DNA of 64,000 nucleotides, from IMG/VR virus record IMGVR_UViG_3300022853_000017. The stretch is one strand, 5' to 3'. The notes under the pieces are model-generated. The model did not search any database. It saw only the letters and a list, made by a program, of their open reading frames with translations, and was not told where the DNA came from. This document shows positions 11,320 to 62,253 of this stretch, in pieces. Source of the stretch: an uncultured virus (IMG/VR IMGVR_UViG_3300022853_000017) (taxonomy: Duplodnaviria > Heunggongvirae > Uroviricota > Caudoviricetes). The translations under genes and the position numbers were made by a program. Numbering within the stretch: position 1 is the first letter of the stretch; every line of letters starts with the position of its first letter.

Positions 11320-11517
11320 CTACTTGTTAGGAGTAAACCGGCGCTGTGGTTTATAACCCTTGGGCCAAGTGGGTTGACGATTAGCAAGCTGATTAACTCG
11401 CTCCGAAAGTTCGTCGTTTTTAACCGACACCTCAGCGTTGACAAATTGCATTGCCTTCACTTCGTTTTCTAGTTCCCGGCACCGTGCCTCAAAGAACCCT
11501 TCTACTCTATCCATCAA
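11320..11517 (-). CDS. hypothetical coiled-coil protein
   Basis: 65-aa ORF coupled to gp59; GAGGAG RBS. Confidence 0.6.
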   Translation of the reverse strand: MMDRVEGFFEARCRELENEVKAMQFVNAEVSVKNDELSERVNQLANRQPTWPKGYKPQRRFTPNK

Positions 11518-12095
11518 CTGGACTCCTCTATGAGTTTCAATAGTCTTATCTTATACTGTTCTTGATCAATTGTCAAGAACCTTTTGTAATTATTCATCAG
11601 ATTTCTTAAATCAATCCATATGATGTCATCCTCTAATTGTTTATTCCAAGATTGTGAATAATTCACTAACTCATCCAATATGATGATTGTTTCTAATGAC
11701 ACCCGGCCACCCAGAAACTCTTTCATTAATTTGGGATGTTGTCCATTTTCTATTTTGAACAAATCCTCAAATGCCTCTACCAGAGGTTTCATCTCAACAT
11801 CAAACAAATCAAAGAAACCCTGACGTTTCAGTTTCCATGCATCATAGTTATCATCATTGAAGTTGGCAATATACCCCTTCTTATCCCTAATGAAGTTTGC
11901 TACAAAGTAATTTTTGATTTGTTCTTCTGTCTTGTACTTGCGAGCCAACCTAACGAAAAACGACCTGTCTTTACGTTTATAGAAGGTGTCACGCTTGATA
12001 CGAGTCTTGCCCTTGTATGTTACAAAGTCATAGTCACTCTTACCAAAGTGTGCCTTCATAGCACAATACATTAGATAAACGTCAATCGGTTCCAT
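11514..12095 (-). CDS. gp59: helicase loader gp59
   Basis: Y.MYCAMKAHF...YDFVTYKGKT...FYKRKDR.FF..LARK; next to gp33. Confidence 0.9.
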   Translation of the reverse strand: MEPIDVYLMYCAMKAHFGKSDYDFVTYKGKTRIKRDTFYKRKDRSFFVRLARKYKTEEQIKNYFVANFIRDKKGYIANFNDDNYDAWKLKRQGFFDLFDVEMKPLVEAFEDLFKIENGQHPKLMKEFLGGRVSLETIIILDELVNYSQSWNKQLEDDIIWIDLRNLMNNYKRFLTIDQEQYKIRLLKLIEESS

Positions 12096-12228: not shown

Positions 12229-12350
12229 CAGTCCATAAACTTTCTGTCTTTGATTAAATGATACAGTCTGTGTGTGAATACATCGAAGAACAGAACAAAT
12301 AAATTATTTGCCGTGTATGTTCCGTTTGGAACTTTTAATTCATATTTCAT
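12228..12350 (-). CDS. small hypothetical protein
   Basis: Manual: MKYELKVPNGTYTANNLFVLFFDVFTHRLYHLIKDRKFMD; start/stop overlaps on both sides. Confidence 0.55.
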   Translation of the reverse strand: MKYELKVPNGTYTANNLFVLFFDVFTHRLYHLIKDRKFMD

Positions 12351-12565
12351 ATTGGGAGTTGTGCTTGTTTCGGTAGAAAATTAAGTTCCCGTGCATTAGC
12401 CTCAATCTTCTCTTTGAGACTTTTGGAAATAAGACTGCCCACAGTATCGGGCTCAATATCTTGACGGTGGCAATAATCAAGAACTGCATCCATATGCGAG
12501 ATGTTCTTGTCTATTGCAAGACGTTCAATTTCCATTGAAAATGTCTTTGATGTGTTTAATGCCAT
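12347..12565 (-). CDS. gp33: late-promoter co-activator gp33
   Basis: FSMEIE...HMDAVLDYC...LISKSLKEKIEANARELNFLP. Confidence 0.92.
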   Translation of the reverse strand: MALNTSKTFSMEIERLAIDKNISHMDAVLDYCHRQDIEPDTVGSLISKSLKEKIEANARELNFLPKQAQLPI

Positions 12566-12593
12566 TTTGTACTCTTGTAAATTAATTAAAGGT

Positions 12594-12640
12594 GAGGGGC
12601 TAACCGTGGGCCCCCCTCGGATGTATTACGGCATCACCCG
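12594..12640 (-). other. tandem hairpins with complementary loops in 3' UTR of HTH gene
   Basis: CGGGTG/CATCCG and GAGGGG/CCCCTC stems; loops contain GCCGT and ACGGT. Confidence 0.55.
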
Positions 12641-12657
12641 TTAGTAGTGGTGTTTAA

Positions 12658-12936
12658 TTAGACACCCTGTGCAAGAGAGCGATAACCCGCCGCAATCACA
12701 GCACGAGTTGCAGTACCAAGGCGGTACTTGTTGTAAGTTACACCATCAAACGAGCTAACCCGCTTGTTGAGGTATACAGGATATCCCTGCATACGAAGAG
12801 AACTCATCAATGCTCGGACATTCTTAACGCCATAACGTGCGCTAATCTGCTTCGCAGTAAGTTCATTACCGTTTTCGAGAGCGGCAATAACCTTAGTTGC
12901 CTTCGAAGTTGTAGTTGTAGCCATACTATAATTCAT
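12658..12936 (-). CDS. small winged-helix DNA-binding protein
   Basis: ELTAKQISARYGVKNVRALMSSLRMQGYPVYLN...YRLG. Confidence 0.8.
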   Translation of the reverse strand: MNYSMATTTTSKATKVIAALENGNELTAKQISARYGVKNVRALMSSLRMQGYPVYLNKRVSSFDGVTYNKYRLGTATRAVIAAGYRSLAQGV

Positions 12937-12957
12937 CCTTTCAAGATGATGTTTTTG

Positions 12958-13017
12958 ACAATATTGCCAGACACAAAGTGTTTCGTTTGGATTTCACAAA
13001 CTCATCAGTGACATTGT
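12958..13017 (-). ncRNA. type I hammerhead ribozyme
   Basis: TGTCA-CTGATGA-GTTTG(TGAAATC)CAAAC-GAAA-CAC(TTT)GTG-TC-TGGCA: complete core, stems I-III, GUC cleavage triplet at 12972-12970. Confidence 0.9.
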
Positions 13018-13023
13018 TTACAG

Positions 13024-13052
13024 AGTATAACAGGTTATTAGTTATTTGTCAA
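13024..13052 (-). promoter_or_regulatory. sigma70-type early promoter TTGACA-17-TATACT
   Basis: Near-consensus. Similar TTGACA-17-(-10) promoters on minus at 9762-9790, 13896-13924, 14122-14150, 20597-20625, 24599-24627, 26874-26902, 27171-27199, 42286-42314, 57463-57491, 60388-60416. Confidence 0.8.
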
Positions 13053-13064
13053 GACCTTTTTTGA

Positions 13065-13252
13065 ATAAAGTGGAAGTTTTTTATCCTGTTGCTAAGAAAA
13101 AAACTCCCAAAAAAACTCCGAAAGATTATGCAGCTAGTGCAAAATCCTCATAAGATACGTTATCGTTTGCATCTATAGTTTTTGACCTATAAGGCGATCA
13201 ATCCACAATTCTCCACTCATCCGTCCCTGCCTGTCGATCCCATGTCACCCCC
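13065..13252 (-). ncRNA. ssrA: two-piece tmRNA, coding piece
   Basis: 5' end GGGGGTGAC..GGATCGAC at 13252; tag (A)ANDNVSYEDFALAA* at 13170-13126; terminal hairpin about 13070-13108 (3' end approximate). Confidence 0.9.
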
Positions 13253-13764
13253 GAAACTATTTCAAAAAACTCTGCTAGGTGGTTGTCATCCATTCTGTTC
13301 TTCAACCAATTTACAGAAACACTAACATATTGAACATTTCCTTTGATATAACCCTTTGAGTTGTCTATCCTATCAAGCGAAGACATATAATTATATCGTT
13401 CAGTAGATTGCATAGCTGTTGGATGTTCCAATTTGACTTTGGTGTAAGCACACTTTCCGTCTTGTAGTTCCCATAACTCTTTTAGGTAAGGTAAATCCAA
13501 ATCAACAACCTTATCCCTTTTATTTGCCCTTCTCATATATTCCCTAAAATCAGTATATTCATCAACCCGATTATTAGAATATTTTGAGATATTTTCTTTG
13601 TTCTCTTTGCTAGAAACCCAAGGATTATATCTTGATGGTTTTCCAGCACAAGAAAGCGAACAATAAAAGTTGGTTCTACCCCTTTTTTTCTGTCTTGTAA
13701 TTTCCTTCAATTCTTTATCAAAACTAATATTACAAGCAGAACATTCAATAGTTTGTGTTTTCAT
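13198..13764 (-). CDS. HNH-family homing endonuclease-like protein inside the tmRNA intervening segment
   Basis: CxxC...YCSLSC Zn module; CAYT...SLDRIDNSKGYIKGNVQ.V...VN..K; own late promoter 13792-13799. Confidence 0.8.
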   Translation of the reverse strand: MKTQTIECSACNISFDKELKEITRQKKRGRTNFYCSLSCAGKPSRYNPWVSSKENKENISKYSNNRVDEYTDFREYMRRANKRDKVVDLDLPYLKELWELQDGKCAYTKVKLEHPTAMQSTERYNYMSSLDRIDNSKGYIKGNVQYVSVSVNWLKNRMDDNHLAEFFEIVSGVTWDRQAGTDEWRIVD

Positions 13765-13826
13765 ATCCTTTCTTATCCCCCTTTTCACACCTATTTATAA
13801 AAAGGTGGAAGTCAAGGGTTCTAACT

Positions 13827-13890
13827 TGGTGGAGGTGGGGGCATCGAAGCCCCGTCCAGTTCAGCTATCAATTCGTATCATCAAATTGTA
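13827..13890 (-). ncRNA. ssrA: two-piece tmRNA, acceptor piece
   Basis: ...GGAC GGGGC TTCGAT GCCCC CACCTCC A CCA; pairs 7/7 with GGGGGTG including G3.U70; 5' end approximate. Confidence 0.88.
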
Positions 13891-13931
13891 TCTTATTTAT
13901 ACCATATTCAGACTAAAATGTCAAGTACTTT

Positions 13932-14066
13932 TTAAAAAGAAATTTTACCATAACCAAGAAGTAAAGCAATAATACCAGAAATCAATAGAATATCAGCACA
14001 TACACTCCATATAAGGTATAGCTTAAACATTAACACTGATATTTTTTTTACTAAGGGGTTCTTCAT
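13932..14066 (-). CDS. small membrane protein
   Basis: Manual: MKNPLVKKISVLMFKLYLIWSVCADILLISGIIALLLGYGKISF. Confidence 0.5.
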   Translation of the reverse strand: MKNPLVKKISVLMFKLYLIWSVCADILLISGIIALLLGYGKISF

Positions 14067-14138
14067 CTGAATCTCCCGATATTTCTATTACCATATTAAT
14101 CTCCTCATCAAATGATATCTTACAATACCACACCCAGA

Positions 14139-14513
14139 CTAGAATGTCAAGTACTTTATTGGCAACCCTTTAATTTTTTTTGGAGGCGCAACTACAACTC
14201 CACCCATTCCCTGACTGATAATACACATTATTTCACCCGACTGTTCTACTATGGTAGTTGTGCCCGTGTTCTCGTTTATATAGAACATAACAGTATCACC
14301 TCGTTCTGCATCAATCCATGCAGCGGCCGGGGTTTCATTAAACTCTGCAATTTTGTCAAGAATTGCTTTCGTGGGCCCACATACTACGGGTTTATTTAAC
14401 AAAGTAAATTCCGGCAGGGTTTCTAAATATTCTGGTGCTGGAATTGTTTCTTGCGCTGAGGTTTGACTACCCAGCAGCAGAAACACCGCCAGTATTGCTA
14501 TTAGATGTTTCAT
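14139..14513 (-). CDS. exported hypothetical protein
   Basis: Signal peptide MKHLIAILAVFLLLGSQTSA; KPVVCG motif. Confidence 0.65.
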   Translation of the reverse strand: MKHLIAILAVFLLLGSQTSAQETIPAPEYLETLPEFTLLNKPVVCGPTKAILDKIAEFNETPAAAWIDAERGDTVMFYINENTGTTTIVEQSGEIMCIISQGMGGVVVAPPKKIKGLPIKYLTF

Positions 14514-15180
14514 TCTGTTTACTCCATTCTGCAACGGTTTCTACAAGAGCATCTAAATAATCATACTTTTCTTTAACAAATTCTTGGACAGTTCCATCAG
14601 CTGTTACTACTAAAATAACTACTTGAGAGATTTCTATCCCTGTTCGTTCCCCGAACATTTCTGCATATGCAGAACCCTGAATGTAATAACTTTCATTATA
14701 CTCATCTTTACGCTCTTTAGTTGATGTCTTGAAGTCGATAATCGATGGTACACCATTGTACTCTGCAATACAATCAACCCTTCCCGCTACCTTATATTTA
14801 TCACTATAGAGTCCTGCTTCTTGAGCATAAATGTTATCTATATTGCATATAACAGACTTTAATTGACTAAAAAGGCAGTAGGGCAAGAAATTGCTTTTGT
14901 GTTTCGCCCACTCATCAGGAAAATTGAACTCCATGTTGTTGAGATAATCTTCACACATCTGATGAACCTTAGTGCCACGATTAGCAGCAGTCCTTGCTAT
15001 ATGATTAGCAACTTCATTACCTACCCTTTTACGCCACTCCATCAGTCCCTTCTTGTTACGGACTGATAGAACCGTTGTGATTGATGGATACCTATTACCC
15101 TCTGGTGTCTCGTATAGTCGTATACCGTCATGGTTAGTTGCCGTTATAGGTTGCAACTCCACCCCTACATGATTAAACAT
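14467..15180 (-). CDS. PD-(D/E)XK exonuclease
   Basis: YPSITTVL, RGTKVH, AGRVDCIAEY..SIIDFKTS, Q..AYA. Confidence 0.9.
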   Translation of the reverse strand: MFNHVGVELQPITATNHDGIRLYETPEGNRYPSITTVLSVRNKKGLMEWRKRVGNEVANHIARTAANRGTKVHQMCEDYLNNMEFNFPDEWAKHKSNFLPYCLFSQLKSVICNIDNIYAQEAGLYSDKYKVAGRVDCIAEYNGVPSIIDFKTSTKERKDEYNESYYIQGSAYAEMFGERTGIEISQVVILVVTADGTVQEFVKEKYDYLDALVETVAEWSKQNETSNSNTGGVSAAG

Positions 15181-28080: not shown

Positions 28081-30132
28081 TTATTTTGATTGAGCCCAGA
28101 AGATTCCATCCCAATCCTCTTCAAGTGGTTGTGTCTTCATAAACTCACAGCGTTCAATCCACATAGTATAATAGTTTTTCATTCTACCGTCGAATTCATT
28201 CATCAAATCATTACATAATCTAATAGCATGGTCAAAATGTTGATTACGATAATATTCGTGCATCTTCTCATGTTGGCTCTCTGCTATACCCCAATTGGTA
28301 TTCTCCATCATCCATCCCATTTCACTGAGAACGGTATATATTCGAATACCAACAGTCTTACCCTTCACTGCAAGCTCATCAACCTTCAAGTAGAAGAAGT
28401 CATCCTTGGTTAAGTCATATGTGGCTTCACCAACCAACAACAGACACCCATACTCTTTGCACTTGCTCTCAATACGAGCAGCGGTAGAGACTGCATCACC
28501 AAGGACATCATAACTGTGTCGCATGGTAGAACCCATCTCTCCAAGATATCCCAACCCTGTGTTGATACCCGCACCCATTCCTATAGGTGGTTTGCCTTCA
28601 GCAACGATCTTGTCATTAAACTTCACTACTGCATCTAGCATCAGTAGCCCAGTTTTAACTGCGCTCTTTGGGTGGTCTGGGTCATCTATGGGTGCGTTAT
28701 GAATGTGCATACTTGCATCACCGATATATTTGATTACCATGCCGTTTGAATCTAAAATAGGTTGTGTGATTGCATCCATATATCCATTCATGATTTCAGT
28801 AAGACCCTTGACATCATCACCAAAACTCTCGCCTAATGGTGTGAACCCACGAAGATCAGAGAAGCAAATACTAATCTCCTTCTTCATACCGTCTTTGATC
28901 AGTGATGGATTTTCTTGTAGTAACCGAACCACAGTTGGGCTGGCATATCCAGCGAACTGTTTCTTGATTTCCATTTTCTGTTTATATTCTTCCATGAACC
29001 GCAGAAACGCAGCAATGGCCCAAACTACAAACATAGTAAGGACGGGATAGGACCAATCCACCAGATAACTGTATTCCGTGAATAGGTAAGATGAACCATA
29101 GAATGAACCGACAAGGAACAATGGCAGTAATACTGCACCAAAATACCACGCCAATGTGAGAACTGTTAGTGCTAGGATTAATGCACCAACACCGCTGATT
29201 GCTAATTCTGCAAGATCAGTCCAAAATGGTCTGGTTATATTGCGACCTGTCATCATGGTAGCAAGTGATGCACCAATAAGGTCATGGGACTGTATGACCC
29301 CCACAGGGGTTGCAACAGGGCTTCCAAGACCAGAAGCAGTCATACTGAGTATAACGATTTTACCTTTGAGGTCTGGTAATTTCTCATGTAGGGGGTGAGT
29401 TTTTGTTCTCCACTGAAAATCCAACCATATGTTACCATTGGCATCTGTGTCAATCATTTTATATTTGGGGATGCGTAGTTTTTCTACACCAGCGATACCC
29501 GTCTTCATCTGGAACGATATGTCTCCTGATGCCATGCGTAGGATTTCCATACTGATAGATGGATATATTTTATCATTCACTGCAATCACCAAAGGCATAC
29601 GTCTAACTACACCATCAGCCTCTGGTGCAATAACCATCATACCAACAGCATTGGCACTCTTTGCAAGTTCTGGAATAGGACCAACCACACCGGGGTATCT
29701 ATATACCCAATTTTTCCAAGGATGGCCAACCGTTGCAACACCACGCACTACACCAGAATTACTATTGTCTGTGCTAGGTATCTGCCCTATAACAGTTGGT
29801 GTTTGTTTGAGCACGTTAGCAAAGAATGTATCCTTACCCCCACGGTCTGGGTCTGCGAATAGAATAGGAACAACGACTAATGACGCTCCTGCTTGATAGA
29901 GTTTGATAATCTCGTTACCAAGTGTTTCCCTATCCCAAGGCCACTGCCCACGTTCTCTGATTGTCTGATTGTTAATTTCTACAGTAACAACATTATCAAT
30001 TATCAGTGTTTCTTGATTGCGCTGATGTTGATCCATTGCCTTGAGGCGAACCATGTCTAGGAACCACGGGTCTGCAAAACGCAATCCACACAATACTAAA
30101 ATGACGAATAATGATATAATCCACTTTTTCAT
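28081..30132 (-). CDS. CHASE2-domain class III adenylate/guanylate cyclase
   Basis: GQWPWDR, DGVVRRMPL; 3 TM helices; FSDLRGFT, KYIGDA, GINTG, YDVLGDAVSTAARIES, VKGK. Confidence 0.93.
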   Translation of the reverse strand: MKKWIISLFVILVLCGLRFADPWFLDMVRLKAMDQHQRNQETLIIDNVVTVEINNQTIRERGQWPWDRETLGNEIIKLYQAGASLVVVPILFADPDRGGKDTFFANVLKQTPTVIGQIPSTDNSNSGVVRGVATVGHPWKNWVYRYPGVVGPIPELAKSANAVGMMVIAPEADGVVRRMPLVIAVNDKIYPSISMEILRMASGDISFQMKTGIAGVEKLRIPKYKMIDTDANGNIWLDFQWRTKTHPLHEKLPDLKGKIVILSMTASGLGSPVATPVGVIQSHDLIGASLATMMTGRNITRPFWTDLAELAISGVGALILALTVLTLAWYFGAVLLPLFLVGSFYGSSYLFTEYSYLVDWSYPVLTMFVVWAIAAFLRFMEEYKQKMEIKKQFAGYASPTVVRLLQENPSLIKDGMKKEISICFSDLRGFTPLGESFGDDVKGLTEIMNGYMDAITQPILDSNGMVIKYIGDASMHIHNAPIDDPDHPKSAVKTGLLMLDAVVKFNDKIVAEGKPPIGMGAGINTGLGYLGEMGSTMRHSYDVLGDAVSTAARIESKCKEYGCLLLVGEATYDLTKDDFFYLKVDELAVKGKTVGIRIYTVLSEMGWMMENTNWGIAESQHEKMHEYYRNQHFDHAIRLCNDLMNEFDGRMKNYYTMWIERCEFMKTQPLEEDWDGIFWAQSK

Positions 30133-30134
30133 AA

Positions 30135-30926
30135 CTAATTTCCTTGCGTAATTCCCACACTACATCCACCACTTGTCAGACAATTCTGTGTCAATGAATA
30201 TGATTGGTTTGTACTACCTTGCTGAATCAAATTCAAATCTGTGTGATAACTACCTGTCAAATCTATTGTTGCACTATGGGCCCCGCTATCTTTTTGAATA
30301 ACAGATTGTGTCCCACCATCTGTCCTCACTGTTATATTTAGGGTCTTATTTCCACTACCATCCTGCTTGACAAACATAGTATTATATTCCCCACCATACA
30401 TGTAAATCTGTGCATAATGGTCTGCATCAACCGAACCTGATGATTGACCCACCTTGATGTTATTATTACCTGAATGTAAGTCTAAATTCACAGTATGGCC
30501 ACCATATTCTGATATAGTACCAGAACAAGTTGTGTCTGATTGGCTATCATATGTACATCCTTGGCCAACACTAACCGTGTTGCTATTGCTCTGAATATGC
30601 ATACCCACCCTATTCGTATCTGTGCCGGTGGTGTTGTATTGTTCAGTTTTTATGGTGTTGCTGTTACCATCCAAATCACCACCCCAAGTCTCACCACTAC
30701 CCCAATAAGAAATCCAACTGACTGTATTGTTGTTTCCCCCTTGTGTAATATTCAAATCATTGTTAGTACCTTCCATAGTAAGATTTACGGAATTGTTATT
30801 ACCGTCAATATCTACAGTTATCGTAGAATCTGTACTCGTACCTATCTGTTCAATGAACACACTGTTGCCAGCAAGTGCAAAGTTAGTCAGACTGAGTAAT
30901 ATTAATGATATTAGAAGCGTTTTCAT
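30135..30926 (-). CDS. curlin-like repeat protein (CsgA/CsgB-like)
   Basis: Signal peptide; N.V.IEQ.G, QGGNNN, QDGSGN, QQGSTNQ repeats. Confidence 0.75.
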   Translation of the reverse strand: MKTLLISLILLSLTNFALAGNSVFIEQIGTSTDSTITVDIDGNNNSVNLTMEGTNNDLNITQGGNNNTVSWISYWGSGETWGGDLDGNSNTIKTEQYNTTGTDTNRVGMHIQSNSNTVSVGQGCTYDSQSDTTCSGTISEYGGHTVNLDLHSGNNNIKVGQSSGSVDADHYAQIYMYGGEYNTMFVKQDGSGNKTLNITVRTDGGTQSVIQKDSGAHSATIDLTGSYHTDLNLIQQGSTNQSYSLTQNCLTSGGCSVGITQGN

Positions 30927-31941
30927 CTTTTGTTGTTATCTCCGGCACAGGCATTCCCTGTGTAATATTAATCCTATAACCATAGTCGTTTATCAAGTCT
31001 AAATCTACTGTGTTACTTCCTACTCTTCGTATGATGCGTGTGCTGTTTCCATCTACCAGTGTGTTGACCTGTGTGACTTTATTAAACCCACTTGTTCTAC
31101 CATCAATCATCTCTGATTGTGCGAGTGAAGCGGCAATCTGGTCTAGGATATTTCCAAGTAGGTCAACATCCAAATCGTTAATGTCTAATTCATTAAACCC
31201 AAATAGGTCTTCTTCTAATTCGTTCTTACCTAAATCATTAAACTCTAAGAGATCAATATCAAGTAAATTCTTACTGTCTTTAGAATCCTCTAATAAATCC
31301 AACAATTTCTGTTTGGGCGGTTTAATAATCAACATGTTATTAATCTGGTCTAATGTCAAATCTAGTATTACAGGCTTAGATGGTTTGTTTTCCCCCGTAC
31401 TAACTAATGTTGATTGGAATGCTTGGTTCATAATAACTTGTCCCGCATCAGTCTCTACCGATATCTTACCTACGGTCCCGTCTTTGTTGGGTAGTAGAAT
31501 AATTAAAGATTTTCCAACCTCATCCACGGTCATACTGAATGCAGTCCCCAACACACCAATCCTTGCTGTTGGTGTTCTAATTTCTACGTTCTGATGATTT
31601 AATTTAGCAATATTACCACTCGCATATCGCACTGTGCCAAGTGCAATATTCATGACCAACTTAGAGCCTGTTTTAGAATTAGGGTCATATATAAATTCAT
31701 CAATTACCAAAGCACTGTGGGCACTCACTGCAACATTAGTATCATCAACAAACGTGATACCTATGTCACCTTTACCAGTTTTCACAGTGTCCTTAAACTC
31801 AATATCGGAACCCTTCTTTAGATCAGTCTTTTCACCAGACCTTTCTACAGAAGCGTTTCCTTTGACCACATTTCCAATAGCACCATAAGCATTGGTACTA
31901 AAGAAAATAATACTAATCGTCCATAGTAATCGTAACATCAT
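30883..31941 (-). CDS. FecR-domain exported protein
   Basis: Signal peptide; D.VKTG...ITFVDDT...IDEFIYDP...IRTPTARIGVLGTAF. Confidence 0.88.
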   Translation of the reverse strand: MMLRLLWTISIIFFSTNAYGAIGNVVKGNASVERSGEKTDLKKGSDIEFKDTVKTGKGDIGITFVDDTNVAVSAHSALVIDEFIYDPNSKTGSKLVMNIALGTVRYASGNIAKLNHQNVEIRTPTARIGVLGTAFSMTVDEVGKSLIILLPNKDGTVGKISVETDAGQVIMNQAFQSTLVSTGENKPSKPVILDLTLDQINNMLIIKPPKQKLLDLLEDSKDSKNLLDIDLLEFNDLGKNELEEDLFGFNELDINDLDVDLLGNILDQIAASLAQSEMIDGRTSGFNKVTQVNTLVDGNSTRIIRRVGSNTVDLDLINDYGYRINITQGMPVPEITTKDENASNIINITQSD

Positions 31942-32596
31942 GGCCTGACCCCACTGTTGTCATGTCCACTGTTCCATCATATGCACCACCCTGTGTAATA
32001 GAAAAAGTACTAGATGAACCCGTATGATGCAGGGTTGTGTCTTGGTCAGCAGCACCAGTGTGTGTAGATGTAATAGTATTACTTCCACCAATCGCTGTAA
32101 TGTTTGTCACCTTCTTATCACCACTCGCCATTGTTGCAGTACTATTTTCATTAATAGTCACTGTATTACTGTCACCTGTAACAACAAGATCAACATCGGC
32201 ATCACTAGACGCAGCACTATTACCCACATTCACCGTAGTCGTATTTGAGCTACCAGTGATTGTCTGGATAATACTGTTGTCATCAGATGAAGAACTAGAA
32301 CCAACCGATACGGTAGACGTATTACTACTACCTGTCTGGTTGATTGTTAACTCTTGTGTTGCACCAACGACAGATGCAGCAATAGTATTTGTACTACCAA
32401 CTTGGTCAATGTCCAACGTCTGGTTGTCACCTGTTAGGGTAACATCAGTTGTCCCGTCACCAAATTGGTTGTCTTGTCCATCTTGATTGATGTTTGCAGT
32501 CAGACTTGCACCAGACTGCGTAATGTAAACGTCACTCGCATAACCCACATTCATCATAACAAAGTAAGCGAGAATAGTAAGTATGCTCGTTCTCAT
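31913..32596 (-). CDS. curlin-like repeat protein (CsgA-like)
   Basis: Signal peptide; YITQSG, INQDG.DN, IDQVGSTN, INQTGSSN repeats. Confidence 0.78.
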   Translation of the reverse strand: MRTSILTILAYFVMMNVGYASDVYITQSGASLTANINQDGQDNQFGDGTTDVTLTGDNQTLDIDQVGSTNTIAASVVGATQELTINQTGSSNTSTVSVGSSSSSDDNSIIQTITGSSNTTTVNVGNSAASSDADVDLVVTGDSNTVTINENSTATMASGDKKVTNITAIGGSNTITSTHTGAADQDTTLHHTGSSSTFSITQGGAYDGTVDMTTVGSGHDVTITMDD

Positions 32597-33393
32597 TTGA
32601 TTTTCTCCTTTTTAAATTCCCAAAGTTTATTTTTCTCACCCACCTTAATAATTTCTATAACCGATTGTTCAATTGCTTTCCTCACGGCATAGGTAGTAGA
32701 CTCATTGTCTGTTATACCTGCTTCAGTCTCCAGCAAGCTTGTTCCCATATCCAAAAACTTGAACACTGTAGCAGATAACTTAGTACTCAGAATTGTCTTC
32801 TGAGAACTGACTGCTAGTAACACCTCACCTGTCTGTACCGATATTAATCGTAAAGCAACTGTAACCATATCTTTACGATACTCATCAGATATACCAATAC
32901 CCAAATATCTTACACCTAGTCCACCAGTTTCCGTATTAGTATCATAACCAACTATACCGCCTGTTAGTAACACTCCTGCAAATAGTAGCGGCCTGATCTT
33001 TTCTGCTTTATCTCCTTCGTGCGACTTTCTTGTGTTTCGTATAATCTGCCGTTCTTTAAGAAGATTGTCTAATTCCATCCTCTCAATAACTTGAAACCAC
33101 TCACCATTCCCAGCCTTCTTTAATGCTTGCAGTAACCATATGTCACCGCCCTGTGTAACCGCACTACTAAGCAAAGCAAGATTATTACCAGACTTTCTCT
33201 GACCAGTAACGTCATTAAATTTATACACTGCTATCGGCACTTTTTGCACTGGTGCCGGGATATTTTTTAGTTCATCTACCATTGGCGATGAAGTTACTTC
33301 AGGTGCATCTATCGGTTGGATAGATGCACAACTAGAAAGTAAAGTCGCCAACAGGAACAGTGATAATAGTCGAACTACCATTTGCATCCACAA
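32593..33393 (-). CDS. csgG: curli secretion channel lipoprotein CsgG
   Basis: Lipobox LSSC; AVYKF.D.TGQRK, SSAVTQG, WF.V.ER..LDNLLKERQIIR, GGIVGYD. Confidence 0.95.
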   Translation of the reverse strand: MWMQMVVRLLSLFLLATLLSSCASIQPIDAPEVTSSPMVDELKNIPAPVQKVPIAVYKFNDVTGQRKSGNNLALLSSAVTQGGDIWLLQALKKAGNGEWFQVIERMELDNLLKERQIIRNTRKSHEGDKAEKIRPLLFAGVLLTGGIVGYDTNTETGGLGVRYLGIGISDEYRKDMVTVALRLISVQTGEVLLAVSSQKTILSTKLSATVFKFLDMGTSLLETEAGITDNESTTYAVRKAIEQSVIEIIKVGEKNKLWEFKKEKIK

Positions 33394-33769
33394 TCGTTAA
33401 TTCTACGGTTTCAGAACTTTTGGTGTAACTGATTGTTGTACCCTCAAAAGTAACTGTGCCGGAAGTTGAAGATTCTTCTCCGAACATACTATCTACTAAT
33501 TGTTTTGAAAGTTGAGCATATATCCTTGACTCTACATTTTTCATAAATTTAGATAGGTTCGTATTTGCAGCATCTCGTATTGCTTGACGTTTCTCTGCTT
33601 CTCGTTTCTCTTTGATTGCTTGTTTCCTAGAGAACTCTTGATTCTCAATAGTTAGAACATGGGCGCTATATCCCTGCCCACTAAAAGCAGGAGACTTCCA
33701 TTGGTGCGTCAAATCTCCAGCAAACGCAAGTGAAGGAACAAACAATAATATCGGTATAAACCTAATCAT
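33332..33769 (-). CDS. csgF: curli assembly component CsgF
   Basis: Signal peptide, L...WKSPAFSG; ESRIYAQLSKQL; TIITVP; directly upstream of csgG. Confidence 0.85.
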   Translation of the reverse strand: MIRFIPILLFVPSLAFAGDLTHQWKSPAFSGQGYSAHVLTIENQEFSRKQAIKEKREAEKRQAIRDAANTNLSKFMKNVESRIYAQLSKQLVDSMFGEESSTSGTVTFEGTTISYTKSSETVELTIVDANGSSTIITVPVGDFTF

Positions 33770-34016
33770 TCTTCTTCTCCTTCTCAATATCACGAAGTTC
33801 CAGTATAGTATTGATCTTTTGGTCCATTCGTATCATATCATTGTCAAGCATCCGTACCCTATCAATAAGTCCAATAGTAGTTCCGGTTGCCTTTTCCAAT
33901 GCGGGAAGAATTTCTTGGGTGACGTATCTCCAAATAAAGAATATGAAATAACCCATACCAACAGCCATAACTACAGTAATGCCCTGTTCTTGGACTGCTT
34001 TAATAATCTCTTCCAT
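33762..34016 (-). CDS. small membrane/coiled-coil protein of the curli operon
   Basis: One TM helix; LIDRVRMLDNDMIRMD. Confidence 0.7.
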   Translation of the reverse strand: MEEIIKAVQEQGITVVMAVGMGYFIFFIWRYVTQEILPALEKATGTTIGLIDRVRMLDNDMIRMDQKINTILELRDIEKEKKND

Positions 34017-35347: not shown

Positions 35348-35505
35348 TATTCATCCTCTTCGCTCCACTCAATCTCATCAACAAATTCTGGATCATAAGT
35401 TGATTCACCACAGAAAGGACAATAGGTTATTTGATAATGGTGTTCATCCATCCCATGTTTAATACGAAACTCTGCTTCACATTCTTCACATACTATTAAT
35501 TTCAC
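35347..35505 (-). CDS. small Zn-ribbon protein
   Basis: Manual (GTG start): CEEC...YCPFCG, acidic tail. Confidence 0.7.
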   Translation of the reverse strand: MKLIVCEECEAEFRIKHGMDEHHYQITYCPFCGESTYDPEFVDEIEWSEEDE

Positions 35506-36038
35506 GCAATTGCCTCATATGCGTCTTCCCAGTTGCCTGATAATCCTGCCACCTCATATTCTGTAACTCTTCCCTCAAAGAAGTTAGTGTGGTCTGCACC
35601 ATTCAGTACCCACTCTAACCAAGGCAGAGGATTTTCCTTTACCTTAAAATTGGTTTTTAAACCCAACTGCAATAAACGTCTGTCTGTTATATACCTTATA
35701 TATGACTTTACTTCAGACGCATCTAGACCTTCAATCTCACCCATCTTATAGGCAAGGTCAATGAATTTGTCTTCTAACTTGACTGCAACACGAGCCATAA
35801 CATAAATGTCTCCCTTGAAATCATCATCAACTACCTTGGGATGCTCAACACAAAATTGACGGAACAGTTTAGCGTTCCCCTCAACATGCATACTATTTCC
35901 AGTAACCGACCTATTGCCATGTTCATCCGTAACAACAAATGATTTACCCGGAACAGATAAGCAATGAAATTCTGTTGGTTCGTCAAGTTTTGTATGTGTT
36001 ATTTTTACATCGGTTGATTTAATTCTTTTTATTTGCAT
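35502..36038 (-). CDS. nrdB: IntC (48 aa) fused to RNR beta subunit C-terminal part
   Basis: ...EFHCLSV...SVTGN|SMHVEG...YIRYITDRRL.QLG...NFFEGRVTEY. Confidence 0.92.
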   Translation of the reverse strand: MQIKRIKSTDVKITHTKLDEPTEFHCLSVPGKSFVVTDEHGNRSVTGNSMHVEGNAKLFRQFCVEHPKVVDDDFKGDIYVMARVAVKLEDKFIDLAYKMGEIEGLDASEVKSYIRYITDRRLLQLGLKTNFKVKENPLPWLEWVLNGADHTNFFEGRVTEYEVAGLSGNWEDAYEAIA

Positions 36039-36805
36039 ATCATGTCACCCCTTTTTGTTATTCCTCTTATATATCCAGCTGGAATTTCTTGTCCCCCACA
36101 AATCCATTTATTTTCCACTTTATTTGTGATTCTAATTTTTCCAGTAAAATGTTTTGATTTTTTAGATGAAGATTCAACACTCATTGTTCTCCCCCTCGAT
36201 TTATTTTTAAACGCATTGCTTCTCCCTCTTTGCCAACCATCAGGAATATCAATTTCATTCATAATCTTTTTTTCATTTACACCATCAGTTATAGTCATCT
36301 CACCAATTCTTTTTTTTATCCCATTTCGTATATTTTCTAAACCACTCCTCTCATGAATTCTTCCTTTATTGTCCGGTAATGTGTTAGGAAAATCTATTAT
36401 TCTTTTTTTAGCTGATATTGATTTTTTCAATTTTACTTCTGGCGAATCTTTTCTCCCAATAGTTTTCTTTGATATGCGTTTATATATTTTATTCCTTTCT
36501 TCTGGTGATTTATATTTATTTGTGTTTCCGCCCGAACCACCTTCTGATAAATTGTATATCAAATCACCAAATTTAGATTTATATTTGTCAATCCAATATA
36601 TTTCTCTATCATCTATATCACTATTATCACAATATTCAATAATAGAAACAATTAAATGATCAGTACTGCCGTGTTTTTTTATTGATTGACGCAGCAACAT
36701 TCCAGAACCAAAGTAATTTTCATCAAATATTTTTTTATGACTTTTACCAATATAAACCCTATTATTAGTTACATTTAATGTTTTGTATATATACCCCATC
36801 AACAT
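36029..36805 (-). mobile_element. GIY-YIG homing endonuclease between nrdB halves
   Basis: GYIYKT.N..NNRVYIGK...YFGSG...REIYWI...YNL..GG; very AT-rich. Confidence 0.9.
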
Positions 36806-36862
36806 ACCCCCAGTTAATATTATAATACTATTTATAATAATGGAGTATTCAAGACGAAAGAG

Positions 36863-38014
36863 TTATTCAACAATTATAAAATATTTGTCTTCTGATGGTT
36901 CAAAATCCTTTGCTAAACATTCCTTTATTTCACCACCCTGTTCATATATCATTCTATGATTTGGTGAAACTTTTTGGTCAAACCCGGCGCCCTCAAAATG
37001 ATATATTTCATCACGAATAACTTTTTGTGTTTTTGTTGGGTTTGTATATGAAAAATCTTTTGTGTTCATATCAAATTGTAACACTTCATCTTCTAATGTT
37101 ATATTTTCAATATTTTTATCGCCGGCCTTAGTTGTTACTTTCGTGCCAACCAATAATGCTTCGTCACGAATAGACCACTCAACAACCTTACCCATACCCT
37201 TCATCTTACCGAACCGCTGGAAGTTGAGGAGCATAACGAATGACGCAAACAGTGCAACACCTTCATTGAACACAGACTTTGCAAGTGCAAGACCTAGACC
37301 CTTCATTGTGGTATTGTCTGACTCCTGCATGAACTCAATCTTATTTACCATTTCCTTGTACTCTAGGAATGCATGGTACTCACTGTCTGGCAACCCAAGT
37401 GTCTCATTGAGTAGAGCATATGCACGTTGGTGTATACCTTCACGGGCTGCAAAAGAACCAAGCATGTTACGGATTTCATTATTCTTGAACTTGGGAATAA
37501 ACTGGTCATAATAGTTCTGACCCACTGCAACATCAGACTGTGTGAACAGGCGTAGGATGTTGGTAACATATTCCTTCTCAGTCTCAGTGACCTTACCAGA
37601 CTTCCAATCAGCCACATCCTCAGACAAATCAAGTTCGTCCTCAATCCAATGTGCCTTTTCATGGCGTGTGGTAATCTCTACTGCCCAAGGATAGTGAAAC
37701 GGTTTATAGGTTTCACTGAACTGTAATAGTCCACCCCCGCTGCGTTTCTTCAGTAGGTCATCACCCATCTTCATTAGATCATCATAACCCCCGATACGCT
37801 TGTCATCAATAAAGATTTGGGGAACAGAATTAACCCTACGAGTATTCATCGCACCCACCACTTCGGTAGCGCCATTGATTGTCTGATAGAACGCTAGACG
37901 TTCTTCTTCATTATCAATCAAATCCTCTTCATACTCAAATGCATGTTCCTTCAACCAACTCTTTGCCATCGTGCAAAATGGACAATCGGACTTTGTTACC
38001 ACTCTTATATTCAT
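36863..38014 (-). CDS. nrdB: glutaredoxin-RNR beta N-terminal part fused to IntN (98 aa, Ala1)
   Basis: CPFC...[41 protein letters not shown]...SPNHRM. Confidence 0.92.
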
Positions 38015-38015
38015 A

Positions 38016-38330
38016 CTATACTCCAAACGATGATCCACAACCACAACTACTTTTCTGTTGTGGATTGCTAATTTTGAGGAACGAACCCCCCAACTCTGTT
38101 ACATAATCTATTTCTGACCCCAAGACATACATCTCTGCCATTGGGTCAAGTACTAATACATTTTCAATTGGTTCTGACCAATTTACATCTGGAAGCTCTG
38201 ATGCCATTGCCCAAACATATTCCAAACCAGAACATCCACCACCCTTAACTCCAAGGGACACATAGTCTCCATCTGATCTAACACTATCTAGATAATCAAC
38301 TGCCGATTTTGTTAGCGCTATCCCGAACAT
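38016..38330 (-). CDS. A-type Fe-S carrier (IscA/HesB family)
   Basis: GGGCSGLEY...IDY...NP...CGCGSSF. Confidence 0.92.
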
Positions 38331-39364
38331 GCTATACACTCCTCTTGTGTCATTGTTTGTGTTTCGTAATCTTTCAATGCATCACGCACTATTTTGGTTG
38401 ACACATTCTCTGCTTTGGCTGAGGTTTCTGTACGAAGATAATACAATCCCTTACAACCCAACTTCCAAGCATTGTAGTGTACTTTATGTAGGTCTGCCTT
38501 CGATGCGCCTGCTGGAAAGAACACATTTAATGACTGACCCTGACATAGAAACTGTTGCCGATCAGCAGCCTGAGAAACGATTGCGTTTTGGTCAATTTCA
38601 ATAGCAGTCCTGAATATATCCTTTACCTCTGATGACAGAAAACTTAGGTGTTGAACAGAACCACCATTAGTGATAATCGAACTCCAAGTTGTTGCATCAT
38701 TCTTATTTATCTTCTCCAATTCCTCTTCAAGATATTTATCTTTAACCAAATGGGAACCAGCACGGGTTCTGTGCGTATATGCATTTGCCTTACTGGGCTC
38801 AATAGATGGCGACGTGCCACAGATGATTGAACTGTTTGCATTAGGTGCAATTGCCAATAGGTGAGAATTGCGCCTTCTTGTACCCTTCATATCTGGACAT
38901 TCACCACGTTCCTTTGAAAGTTGTTCTGTCTCTGCAACTGCTTCTGATTTAATATGTTCAAAGATTTGAATGTTTTTAACCACAGCAGATGGAGACTCAA
39001 GGGGGATACGATGCTTGTGCAAATAAGAATGCCATCCCATTGCACCCAAACCAAGGCTACGTTCTTGTGTAGCAGAGAAACGAGCACGACTGATTTCATC
39101 ACCCGCATTGTCAATGAAGAACTGAAGGACGTTATCTAGGAATCGAATAAGATCACGAATCATTGTAGTATCCTTCCATTCATCAAATTTCTCCAGATTG
39201 ACAGATGACAAACAACACACAGCAGTGCGATCTTCATTAGTAGGAAGGTGAATCTCATTACAGTTATGCACAACAATACCATTAGCATAAAAGTTGTGGT
39301 TGTTCTCTACAGTAATATCATATACGGGCCGGCGCTGAGTTAGTTTCGTTATTTTTAAGGCCAT
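38318..39364 (-). CDS. nrdA: IntC (34 aa) fused to RNR alpha subunit C-terminal part
   Basis: VYDITVENNHNFYANGIVVHN|CNEIHLP...AIAPNANSS...QSLN...LYYLR...ECIACSG. Confidence 0.95.
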   Translation of the reverse strand: MALKITKLTQRRPVYDITVENNHNFYANGIVVHNCNEIHLPTNEDRTAVCCLSSVNLEKFDEWKDTTMIRDLIRFLDNVLQFFIDNAGDEISRARFSATQERSLGLGAMGWHSYLHKHRIPLESPSAVVKNIQIFEHIKSEAVAETEQLSKERGECPDMKGTRRRNSHLLAIAPNANSSIICGTSPSIEPSKANAYTHRTRAGSHLVKDKYLEEELEKINKNDATTWSSIITNGGSVQHLSFLSSEVKDIFRTAIEIDQNAIVSQAADRQQFLCQGQSLNVFFPAGASKADLHKVHYNAWKLGCKGLYYLRTETSAKAENVSTKIVRDALKDYETQTMTQEECIACSG

Positions 39365-39366
39365 GA

Positions 39367-40008
39367 TTATTTTCTCCTACTTGCTTCTGCTAGTTTTTGT
39401 TTGTGTTCTTTAGTTTTTACATATTTAAAGTCATCGTCACACAACCCATATTTTTTCTTCATAGAATTTTTAAATCCCACTCTGCCACCACCCAAATCTT
39501 CAAATCTACACAGCGCATAACTTGTGGGAAAACCAAGAGTTTTACTATATATAAACCAGTGATATAATGGTAATACACCATGTTCTTTAAAATAAGAATA
39601 TGCGCCTTCAAGCAGTGTTTCGTCATCAACATTAATATATCTGGGATTATTCGTTCCTTTCATCATCCTACTATGATTTTTATAAAACTCATCTCGTTTC
39701 TCTGGGGGAACACAATATCCACCATCACCACCAAGACTTTGATTATACCCATTCACATAAGTATCAAGATTTTTAATATAGAACTTTTCCATATCAGTTG
39801 CTTTCTTTTTAGAACGACCTTCCCACAATATCTTTGATGAAAAATCATCTATACCATATAATCGTATCGCATTATATAAATGCGTCTGCTGACCTCGTTT
39901 AGCATTAATATGGTGTTTGTGCAATCTCGCTGATACACCCTTTGAACTATATCCCACATATTGTTTGCCGGATGTTTTAGATGTTAATAGATATGTTGTG
40001 TATTTCAT
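39367..40008 (-). mobile_element. GIY-YIG-type homing endonuclease between nrdA halves
   Basis: TYLLT...GKQYVG.S....RL..H...E..YI...GYN...GGDG. Confidence 0.88.
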
Positions 40009-40095
40009 ATTAATCCCCGATAGATGAGTAGATGGATTTCTTGTTATACTTATATTTATAATAAAACAAATCTATAGAAATCCATCTACTATTAT

Positions 40096-41274
40096 CTAAC
40101 CAAAGACAAGATCATCATCCTCGTTCAAATCCTCAGCCTTTACATACCCACGATTTTTTGTGAATACTCTGTGGTCGGGGGTGCATTCAATAAAGTTGCC
40201 AGTTTCTTCATCCTCAATACGAATCAAATCAGCATCATTATTCATCAACGAACCAGATAATACTCTTTGATAGGAAGTTTCACCAGTTTCCACATTATAG
40301 GACAGAACTTTAACATCAGCAGCAAAACTCTGTTTGCAAATATATTCAAGTGTAACCCCAAAACAGGGATCGCCGTCTATAATACAATCAAGTTTTGTAT
40401 CACCCACAAGACACAGGTTAGACCCGTTGATTTTTAATCCTTTATCTTTCATGGTCTGTGGTAATGCACGGTTGGCTGTATCAATGAAGTTAAGATATGG
40501 TTCACCTGTGCGATAACGTGTCTCCAACACAGTTTCCCATAATTTTCTAGCCTTCATACTGTCACGGGCATCTTGTTCATTTGGATCAACCAAATCCCAC
40601 ATCTCATCACGTTCTACTGCTCGCATAAACGCATCGCTAATATTCACTGCATGATGCAAATTAAGGTTCTTACGATTCACGTCTCCTGTGGGTATACGCA
40701 TGTTTAGGAACTCAATAATATCAGGGTGGGAGATGTCCATGTATGCAGCATATGACCCCTTACGGGTCTTCCCCTGACGATATGCGGTCATGTCAGCGTC
40801 TACTGTATGGATAAATGGCATAGGACCGGGTGCTTTATCTGACACTGCACGAACATCACTCCAATGTCCACCAACACCACCACCCTTGACTGACAACCAA
40901 CGCAACTCAGCAGAATGGTCAATCAAACCCTCAAGGGTATCAGGAACATATGTGAGGAAACAGGAGATAGGAAGAGCTCGTGTCTTCTCACCCGGCATAG
41001 GAGCATTGGATAGGACCGGGGAAGCAAACATAAACCAACCATCACTTACATAATCATAAATCTTCTGGGCAAGTTCCATGTCACCATATGAATACGCAAC
41101 CGCTGCTCGTGCATATGCCTGTTGTGGTGATATTTCATCCTTTGTCTGGTAATAATCTGTAAGTAACTTCTTAGCTTGTTCTGACAGAGATTGATCTTTT
41201 GTTCTGTCTATTTTAATTCCAACGTATTCTTCTGTGGTTTTGAGGTATACAACTTCAGCGGTTGCGGTGTTCAT
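40096..41274 (-). CDS. nrdA: RNR alpha subunit N-terminal part fused to IntN (105 aa)
   Basis: FASPVLSN, ISCFL, GGGVG, RQGKTRKGS, TGEPY, GSNL|CLVGDT...CTPDHRVFT. Confidence 0.95.
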   Translation of the reverse strand: MNTATAEVVYLKTTEEYVGIKIDRTKDQSLSEQAKKLLTDYYQTKDEISPQQAYARAAVAYSYGDMELAQKIYDYVSDGWFMFASPVLSNAPMPGEKTRALPISCFLTYVPDTLEGLIDHSAELRWLSVKGGGVGGHWSDVRAVSDKAPGPMPFIHTVDADMTAYRQGKTRKGSYAAYMDISHPDIIEFLNMRIPTGDVNRKNLNLHHAVNISDAFMRAVERDEMWDLVDPNEQDARDSMKARKLWETVLETRYRTGEPYLNFIDTANRALPQTMKDKGLKINGSNLCLVGDTKLDCIIDGDPCFGVTLEYICKQSFAADVKVLSYNVETGETSYQRVLSGSLMNNDADLIRIEDEETGNFIECTPDHRVFTKNRGYVKAEDLNEDDDLVFG

Positions 41275-61849: not shown

Positions 61850-62253
61850 TAGACTTCTTTTTTCTTACCAATATTGTACTTAGTTTCGAGTACCCAATCA
61901 CTCTTCTCTGCATAAGACAGAACTTTGATTTGGCTGAGGGGAGCAACTTCTCCAATCTCACTAATGACGTTAACCAATCCCCAATCAAGCAATAGTTTTG
62001 CAATCGTATTCCTACGAGAAATGTCATTGGTAGATAGATTTGTGTTCTTACCATCAAGAGCAAACAACTCCTTGAAGTGTACAATAAAGTATCTACCCTG
62101 CTTGTGCAGAATATGACATGACTGATATAGTTTCTTTTCTTTGCGAGATGCTACTCCAATTCGTGATAGCGTCTCACGAACTTTAAGAAAGTCATCAGGT
62201 TCTTTCAAACCAATTTCTAACATCTGCTCCTGTGTCCAATTAATATCTTCCAT
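61849..62253 (-). CDS. regA: translational repressor RegA
   Basis: PDDFLKVRETLSRIGVASR...LYQSCHILHKQGRYFIVHFKELFALDG. Confidence 0.97.
   Translation of the reverse strand: MEDINWTQEQMLEIGLKEPDDFLKVRETLSRIGVASRKEKKLYQSCHILHKQGRYFIVHFKELFALDGKNTNLSTNDISRRNTIAKLLLDWGLVNVISEIGEVAPLSQIKVLSYAEKSDWVLETKYNIGKKKEV

Follow-up and report, generated by a model that had tools for sequence, protein, structure and literature searches.

The stretch of DNA analysed here (the window) comprises 64,000 nucleotides (nt) from an uncultured T4-like marine myophage (IMG/VR record IMGVR_UViG_3300022853_000017). On its minus strand, an early promoter opens onto a short leader that precedes a small winged-helix gene and, judged from the sequence, this leader is occupied by a complete type I hammerhead ribozyme, which confirms the observation made in a preliminary description of the same DNA. 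The features of the promoter, leader and gene are listed below, counted in base pairs (bp) where helices are concerned; RBS denotes the ribosome-binding site.

13024..13052, minus strand: sigma70-type early promoter, with -35 box TTGACA (13052-13047), a 17-nt spacer, TG and -10 box TATACT (13029-13024)
13018 or 13017, minus strand: predicted transcription start (A), 6-7 nt past the -10 hexamer, placed by promoter geometry
12958..13017, minus strand: type I hammerhead ribozyme, with stem I open and stems II and III closed by loops
13017-13009, minus strand: 5' strand of stem I, ACAAUGUCA
13002..13008, minus strand: core CUGAUGA (C3 to A9), invariant in the 27 distinct parsed modules described below
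13001-12997 with 12989-12985, minus strand: stem II, GUUUG paired with CAAAC, closed by the 7-nt loop UGAAAUC (12996-12990)
12984-12981, minus strand: core GAAA (core GAA at 12984-12982)
12981-12978 with 12974-12971, minus strand: stem III, ACAC paired with GUGU, closed by the loop UUU (12977-12975); invariant among the parsed modules
12970/12969, minus strand: predicted cleavage site, with C17 at 12970, from hammerhead chemistry applied to the motif
12969-12958, minus strand: 3' strand of stem I, with UGGCA (12969-12965), the bulge AUA and UUGU (12961-12958)
12956..12969, minus strand: 5'-terminal hairpin UGGCA-AUAU-UGUCA, in the minimum-energy fold of the predicted cleaved leader
12933..12949, minus strand: RBS hairpin UCAUCUU-GAA-AGGAUGA, 7 bp, enclosing the Shine-Dalgarno sequence AAGGA (12940-12936)
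12658..12924, minus strand: winged-helix gene of 88 amino acids, its start taken as the ATG at 12924, at the position where T4 has dsbA

Every element named in the preliminary description, namely the canonical core CUGAUGA/GAAA/GUC and three stems, was found on the minus strand. The conserved core is complete (C3 U4 G5 A6 N7 G8 A9, G12 A13 A14, the A15.1-U16.1 pair formed by A12981 and U12971, and C12970 as H17), a G10.1-C11.1 pair closes stem II, and the GUC site and the A15.1-U16.1 pair co-occur with the full core. Stem I (strands 13017-13009 and 12969-12958) is open and stems II and III are closed by loops, which is the type I topology. Two details of the stems needed revision. The stem I pairing UGUCA:UGGCA stood, but its extension as ACAAU:AUUGU did not, because U13013 cannot serve both segments of the stem, which leaves a distal helix of 4 bp (ACAA:UUGU) set off from the proximal part by a 3-nt bulge; stem III, given as CAC:GUG, is correct but gains a fourth pair when A15.1-U16.1 is included. 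The 7-nt loop II and the 3-nt bulge past the first 5 bp of stem I could take part in a tertiary contact of the kind that gives fast cleavage at low Mg2+. The predicted cut between 12970 and 12969 agrees with its earlier placement some 30 nt before the RBS, as AAGGA lies 29 nt past it. The heptamer CUGAUGA occurs 33 times in the window, counting both strands, and the remaining motif accompanies this copy only; the hammerhead is single in the window and not a dispersed repeat.

The promoter matches the consensus at 11 of 12 positions and is the sole site of such quality in 12300-13900. The earlier reading, in which TTGACA-17-TATACT places +1 at about 13017-13018 and the hammerhead starts there, is borne out by the sequence. 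Many similar TTGACA-17-TATAnT sites are found on the minus strand of the window, and a hammerhead follows only one of them. The assignment of the leader to a helix-turn-helix gene also holds: the gene is of the winged-helix type, its product matching Pfam HTH_39 (E 1.6e-4, 21.9 bits against a cut-off of 21.3), and it falls into phrog_4973, a PHROG of unknown function.

A protein-anchored search of viral contigs identified 186 relatives of the winged-helix gene, the best 80 of which were kept as loci (numbered with the prefix L). The full hammerhead pattern was present in 45 of these 80, and 16 had the same promoter with a different short leader. Neither a promoter nor a leader of this type was seen at 18 loci, where the gene directly follows a transfer-messenger RNA (tmRNA) or transfer RNA (tRNA) gene, and the remaining locus was cut by a contig end. 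The promoter lies directly upstream at 44 of the 45 ribozyme loci, the last one (L029) being cut by the end of its contig. The 45 loci are not independent and reduce to 18 distinct ribozyme sequences; counted as whole modules, 38 of the 45 could be parsed (all except L007, L020, L021, L029, L032, L035 and L036), giving 27 distinct ones. Pairwise identity among these 27 modules was 96.9% for the ribozyme overall and 100% for both core strands, stem III and the UC of the cleavage site, so the core proved conserved in relatives, where a lack of conservation had been named beforehand as grounds for refutation. Segments that look neutral were far more variable, with 70.7% identity in the promoter spacer, 67.0% in the linker that leads up to the RBS hairpin and 71.1% at third codon positions. 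The first and second codon positions of the winged-helix gene were 93.5% and 96.1% identical, respectively, and the constraint on the ribozyme is therefore stronger than that on the downstream protein.

The pairing is conserved along with the sequence. Among the 18 distinct ribozyme sequences the core is invariant (18/18), and the 18 pairs of the hammerhead fold are formed in 99.7% of 324 cells, a figure that falls to 22-44% when the partner strand is slid by 1-3 columns. The covariation check that had been proposed for homologous helix-turn-helix genes revealed a compensatory pair in stem II, where U:A is replaced by C:G in 7 of the 18 sequences; two further changes are compatible with wobble pairing. 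A metagenome scan in which stem III was left free returned 64 stretches, 26 of them distinct and 25 of these belonging to the winged-helix-leader family. No covariation in stem III was found among these 25 sequences, two of which have loop III enlarged to UUAG with the pairs kept.

Hammerheads of the same type outside this family provided an independent comparison. Viral contigs were scanned with a pattern fixing only the core and stem III (CTGATGAG, 11-19 N, CGAAACAC, 3-5 N, GTGTC), which yielded 84 stretches; 80 of these gave 37 distinct sequences, 18 from the winged-helix-leader family and 19 others. Stem I formed at least 3 contiguous bp beside the core in 36 of the 37, and stem II at least 4 bp in all 37. 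The exception, L113, has a longer stem III that pushed the stem I strand outside the extraction window, and it was left out of the alignment. In the 18 remaining unrelated sequences, all 10 pairs left free by the search pattern show compensatory changes, and 95.6% of cells are paired as compared to 67.1% in shuffled sequences and 28-40% with slid partners. Unrelated viral type I hammerheads also have loops II similar to that of the window element (UGAAAAUU, UGAGAUU, UGAAAGU). A model, R1, built from these 18 sequences only and thus without the winged-helix-leader family, gave the window element a score of 59.1 bits (rough E 9.5e-18); the next best place in the 64 kb scored 13.3 bits. About 21 matching bases are given by construction, as the search pattern was taken from the window element, but this applies neither to the base pairs of stems I and II nor to the likeness of loop II. 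As a wider observation, at least a dozen unrelated viral contigs among L081-L160 carry strongly covarying type I hammerheads that score below the Rfam hammerhead cut-offs. Many of them share the loop II form UGA(A/G)A(A/U)U(U), and several are located either 25-40 nt upstream of a start codon or immediately after a hairpin or tRNA-like sequence.

The predicted cleaved message begins with UGGCAAUAUUGUCA and folds as a 5-bp hairpin from its very first nucleotide (12969-12956), with an energy of -2.6 kcal/mol at 37 C that falls to -4.35 kcal/mol at 15 C. The four inner pairs of this hairpin form in all 72 cells, the outer pair in 11 of 17. A short variable linker separates this hairpin from the RBS hairpin, which is 99% identical among the family modules, differs in length in the loop only, and has a U:A outer pair in most alleles and A:U in allele D. 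The sequence UGUCA is present twice (13013-13009 and 12960-12956), and either copy can pair with UGGCA at 12969-12965. Two other pairings were considered and rejected: the rival minimum-energy fold of the leader, as a conserved structure, is broken by the stem II substitution in 7 of 18 sequences without compensation, and a pairing of UGAUG of the core with CAUCA before the RBS was dropped, being only 5 bp formed over a distance of 55 nt.

The 16 ribozyme-free loci that retain the promoter carry three leader alleles, and all three fold to the same two-hairpin plan as the predicted cleaved leader. The L012 type (7 loci) and the L040 type (6 loci) each have a 9-bp 5'-terminal hairpin starting at +2 followed by the RBS hairpin, and the L024 type (3 loci) has a 7-bp hairpin from +6 and an RBS hairpin with an A:U outer pair, the others having U:A. 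The stems of these hairpins reuse ACAAUGUC and AUAUUGU, sequences of ribozyme stem I. Removing 38 nt after CUGAUGA and a short variable linker after UAUUGUC from the ribozyme allele gives the L012-type allele, whose CUGAUGA is formed by the hairpin loop CUGA and UGA of the stem. The ribozyme may have been born inside such a hairpin, as the L012-type allele already spells CUGAUGA. The promoter spacer, otherwise the most variable segment, is identical in L059 (hairpin allele) and L015 (ribozyme allele), and the leader forms therefore exchange within one population, and have done so recently. In L035 and L036, an extra open reading frame (ORF) of about 200 amino acids lies between two promoter-leader copies (535-1410). 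The copy adjoining the winged-helix gene has an intact ribozyme; the one that no longer precedes the gene has lost stem III, the cleavage site and the 3' strand of stem I, and its stem II is mutated.

Taken with a probability somewhat above even, these data suggest that the window encodes an active type I hammerhead within the first 60 nt of an early transcript, acting as a module that sets the 5' end of the message. A RiboJ-like setting of the 5' end, argued by analogy, is our best reading of the function, and we infer transcription start, cleavage, discard of the ribozyme piece and stabilization as its steps. Host RNA polymerase would initiate at about 13018/13017, or enter from the upstream tmRNA and HNH genes. 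The ribozyme would fold while being transcribed, with the 5' strand, the core and both closed stems (II and III) completed before the competing UGUCA at 12960-12956, and would cut after C12970, between 12970 and 12969. C17 (12970) would retain a 2',3'-cyclic phosphate and U12969 would become the 5'-OH end of the messenger RNA (mRNA). The 48-49-nt ribozyme piece would be discarded, and the winged-helix message, probably together with gp33 and gp59, would then start at U12969. The freed 3' strand of stem I would switch partner into the terminal hairpin, releasing the ribozyme piece and hindering re-ligation. Every transcript, even one that enters from the HNH and tmRNA genes, would acquire one and the same 5' end, which amounts to insulation.

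A 5'-OH end cannot become a monophosphate via pyrophosphate removal, and 5'-terminal stabilizing hairpins, such as that of the ompA leader, likewise block the entry of RNase E/G. The 5'-OH and the 5'-terminal hairpin of the cleaved leader should thus shield the message from 5'-monophosphate-dependent RNase E/G. RNase E and G favour 5'-monophosphate ends, as summarized for T4 (Uzan and Miller 2010, PMC3014915). The same review describes how 5'-OH ends made by RegB in T4 are attacked only after the action of the phage polynucleotide kinase, loss of which stabilizes some transcripts. The window phage is itself T4-like, and the proposed module resembles T4 5'-end control in that 5'-OH ends block 5'-monophosphate-dependent entry of RNase E/G; in T4, as treated in that review, the 5'-OH is produced by a protein nuclease and marks messages for inactivation, whereas in the window it would be produced by a ribozyme and would be protective. 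The idea of a built-in stabilizer and insulator, put forward in the preliminary description, gains indirect support because the cleaved leader and the leaders of the sister phages both show a 5'-terminal hairpin.

The closest functional parallel is man-made. RiboJ consists of the sTRSV ribozyme and a 23-nt hairpin placed after a promoter, and raises transcript abundance about twofold, possibly via the terminal hairpin (Clifton et al. 2018, PMC6206723). Promoter, self-cleaving hammerhead, hairpin and RBS follow in the same order in the window, with a hairpin-headed leader after the cut, and the geometry is similar (predicted +1 at 13018/13017, hairpin at 12969-12956, Shine-Dalgarno sequence at 12940-12936), start and cleavage both being predictions. 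Unlike RiboJ, which combines a plant satellite ribozyme with a separately added hairpin, the window element is natural and makes its hairpin from the 3' strand of stem I; the likeness concerns the way of working only and not family membership. We advance more tentatively, and at somewhat less than even odds, that the locus is a natural version of RiboJ in which the hammerhead and a plain 5'-terminal hairpin can stand in for each other in protecting the 5' end of an early mRNA.

Several results weigh against an active, 5'-end-setting ribozyme. No hammerhead model of Rfam matched at the gathering threshold anywhere in the window, which leaves the proposed cmscan check negative. At E<=10 on 401 nt, the type III model Hammerhead_3 scored 27.8 bits against a cut-off of 48.5 and has the wrong topology, its alignment fitting the core and stem II and collapsing stem I; RAGATH-1 gave 16.2 bits against 56.3, and the type I model RF00163 returned nothing at E<=10 in G001, the nearest record, although G001 contains the element. 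Rfam also missed all eight of the unrelated, covarying type I loci submitted to it (L081, L095, L103, L117, L120, L130, L134 and L154), and its failure therefore reflects the models rather than the element, making this criterion insensitive for type I hammerheads of such a class. The 66-nt element is no more stable than shuffled sequences (z 0.06), and its fold of lowest energy differs from the hammerhead; at 37 C, the ribozyme fold of the entire leader (-12.3 kcal/mol) is 3.4 worse than the best fold (-15.7), in an energy model that leaves out tertiary contacts and Mg2+. The winged-helix-leader family (18 sequences) shows only one compensatory pair, and the 5'-terminal hairpin at 12969-12956 is conserved yet without covariation. 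A T4-type polynucleotide kinase, if encoded, would phosphorylate the 5'-OH and abolish the protection; none was seen among the 84 ORFs of the window, which is only part of the genome. Presence or absence of the ribozyme varies between near-identical phages, and because close relatives do without it, its benefit must be modest or conditional. Lastly, a run search gave 10 RNA runs, all with small shares, four of which were compared with the window: their metatranscriptome contig sets gave no cover over 12965-12995, leaving the ribozyme allele uncovered. The contigs that cross the site carry a hairpin allele, joining 12951 to 13002 with 50 nt skipped and 6 other letters. These hairpin-allele contigs come from two studies (runs X4 and X5) and place the ribozyme-free form in RNA libraries, where carry-over of DNA is possible.

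The best-surviving alternative, which we nevertheless regard as unlikely, is that the ribozyme mainly processes transcripts reading in from upstream, freeing the tmRNA coding piece or the HNH mRNA or helping to mature the 3' end of the tmRNA. The neighbouring piece is as follows.

13072..13252, minus strand: coding piece of a two-piece (permuted) tmRNA, with the tag frame ending in ...ALAA and a stop at 13126 and the last helix ending at about 13072

Rfam tmRNA_permuted matches 13320-13126 at 49.9 bits (cut-off 47), the 5' end of RF00023 aligns from 13252, and homology to the tmRNA of L020 likewise begins at 13252; ARAGORN reported no tmRNA or tRNA in 12500-15000. Some 20 nt separate the end of the coding piece from the -35 box, and no intrinsic terminator was found between the piece and the promoter, an arrangement that would favour processing of read-in transcripts. 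So would L035 and L036, where the intact ribozyme would also part the inserted upstream gene from the winged-helix message, and the unrelated hammerhead of L120, which follows a sequence resembling a tmRNA tag end, not confirmed by Rfam on this short locus. Against it, the promoter stands without the ribozyme at 16 of the 80 loci, and both are absent from a further 14, with the tmRNA intact where checked: it scores 110-129 bits in the ribozyme-free loci L009, L024, L040 and L069, and the range is 53-129 bits when L012, whose tmRNA is cut at the locus end, is included. Ribozyme modules also lie 143 nt (L065), 572 nt (L063) and 853 nt (L035) past the tmRNA end, and a strong promoter stands between tmRNA and ribozyme, so most ribozyme transcripts need not include any tmRNA. 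The suggestion in the preliminary description that cleavage would cut the message away from tmRNA read-through may hold as a possible effect; as the main purpose it does not, because relatives with the same tmRNA lack the ribozyme and other ribozyme copies are distant from it.

The tmRNA gene of the window has its own peculiarities. It scores 49.9 bits with tmRNA_permuted against 109-123 bits in relatives and, compared with the L020 tmRNA (902-1352), the permuted gene (13198-14158, minus strand) appears both rearranged and interrupted. The start of the acceptor piece and the intervening segment known from L020 come first (14158-13934), then a full acceptor piece (13931-13826), then about 570 nt unique to the window with an HNH endonuclease ORF (13198-13788; PHROG endonuclease/HNH), and finally the coding piece (13252-13072). 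A homing endonuclease may, from this arrangement, have settled in the segment that separates the two parts of the tmRNA.

A translational or kinetic switch, in which the hammerhead, the 3'-strand hairpin and the RBS hairpin compete so that a regulated fraction of the message is cut or translated, appears to us distinctly improbable. It would make use of the two UGUCA copies able to pair with UGGCA and of a Shine-Dalgarno sequence enclosed in a conserved hairpin, and it would accommodate the difference between the ribozyme fold and the minimum-energy fold of the whole leader; a gene for a RegA translational repressor is also present in the window. The RBS hairpin is, however, equally present in the ribozyme-free alleles and so independent of the ribozyme, the 60 nt show no evident domain for sensing or for binding a ligand, and no alternative fold is supported by covariation. 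The RegA-type gene lies at 61852-62262 (Pfam Translat_reg, E 4.3e-42), and the AU-rich stretch around the winged-helix start, in and after the RBS hairpin, could be a candidate RegA target.

About equally improbable is that the ribozyme is a passenger on a mobile promoter-leader cassette without benefit of its own, or that the released 48-49-nt RNA is the real product. In T4-type phages, promoter-early stem-loop (PeSL) cassettes are composite terminator/promoter motifs that serve as sites of gene insertion and swapping, according to the account of Comeau et al. 2014 (PMC4122927). The window module is similar in consisting of a short conserved promoter with a hairpin, and the ORF inserted between two promoter-leader copies in L035 and L036 resembles, by analogy, the way in which cassettes enter T4-type phage genomes at repeated promoter motifs, or PeSL recombination as described there. 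Unlike the PeSL of that account, the window module has its structured part after the promoter, within the leader of the transcript, and in one allele this part is a ribozyme. Variable presence among near-identical phages would also suit a passenger. The degree of identity does not, the ribozyme (96.9%) exceeding the first and second codon positions of the gene (93.5% and 96.1%); moreover, the only copy no longer preceding the gene has decayed, and there is one copy per window and no dispersed repeat.

Very improbable, lastly, is a conserved leader structure or DNA site that resembles the hammerhead consensus by chance: the lack of an Rfam model above cut-off, a hammerhead fold that is not thermodynamically favoured and an L012-type hairpin allele that also spells CUGAUGA, so that part of the core can arise otherwise, stand against the co-occurrence of all core positions with G10.1-C11.1, A15.1-U16.1 and GUC, the 59.1 bits of the independent model R1 and the silence of Rfam on eight of eight comparable loci, which makes its silence here say little.

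Regarded as an active hammerhead, the element shares with known type I ribozymes (Rfam clan CL00010; RF00163) the core, the open stem I and a cut 3' of C17 in GUC, as well as an A-rich loop II of 7 nt and an internal bulge that comes after about 5 bp of stem I. The type I ribozyme of Schistosoma uses a stem I bulge and loop II for tertiary contact. Unlike the known members, the window element is AU-rich, has a 4-bp stem III with a 3-nt loop and is missed by RF00163, and it is a single copy in a phage leader, unlike the hammerheads of repeats, retrozymes and viroid-like RNA.

Hammerheads before phage genes are already in print. Perreault et al. 2011 (PMC3088659) describe them in intergenic regions of PaP3 and Bcep176 and, 13 nt before a start codon, in the haloviruses HF1 and HF2, as well as triple hammerheads flanking ardA; in that account the function of phage and prophage hammerheads is either unknown or proposed to be RNA processing or gene control. 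Like those examples, the window ribozyme lies just upstream of a phage gene and is expected to cut its message. It differs from those described there in starting at the predicted +1, so that it removes only itself, in that its predicted cleaved end refolds to a terminal hairpin, and in having a sister hairpin allele at the same site. The stem II sequence of the window gave no match in a text search of 11 supplementary files of PMC3088659, where gapped alignments could hide one, and a limited literature search yielded no paper that connects hammerheads to pelagiphage-type phages or to phage leaders next to a tmRNA. What is particular to the window locus is the start at +1, a product hairpin made from stem I and natural hairpin alleles at the same site.

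The wider genomic setting is that of a T4-like phage. The window carries genes for gp32, gp33, gp59, RNase H, RegA and the family B DNA polymerase gp43, as well as for PhoH, ThyX and baseplate proteins, and its ribonucleotide reductase genes are split. Methylophilales phage Melnitz and Pelagibacter phage HTVC008M are the nearest relatives in culture, with winged-helix proteins that are only 30-32% identical; among cultured phages, the protein search gave 7 records at 30-40% identity (Melnitz, HTVC008M and one Stenotrophomonas phage), and the DNA search matched the tmRNA only (4 Melnitz records, 74.6%). Both ribonucleotide reductase genes are interrupted by GIY-YIG endonuclease ORFs, and the large subunit has an intein fragment. 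The regions 28084-33793 and 35505-41274 hold cargo unusual for a T4-like phage, which includes a gene for a FecR-like protein. The genes following the winged-helix gene and those of the cargo that were placed individually are given below.

12347-12565: gp33, next after the winged-helix gene
11514-12095: gp59, after the winged-helix gene and gp33
28084-30132: CHASE2-adenylate/guanylate cyclase protein
32596-33393: curli secretion gene CsgG
33335-33793: curli secretion gene CsgF

As the comparison with unrelated loci indicates, marine and other phages harbour a whole group of AU-rich type I hammerheads that escape the current Rfam models. Hammerheads were found by the thousand in 2011, and this locus offers an unusually clean test of what they do in bacteria and phages. 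A ribozyme located at the first nucleotide of its transcript would remove only itself, and its product would mimic the hairpin leader of sister phages, which thus constitute natural controls. If the proposed setting of the 5' end is true, it would provide a concrete and testable function for phage hammerheads.

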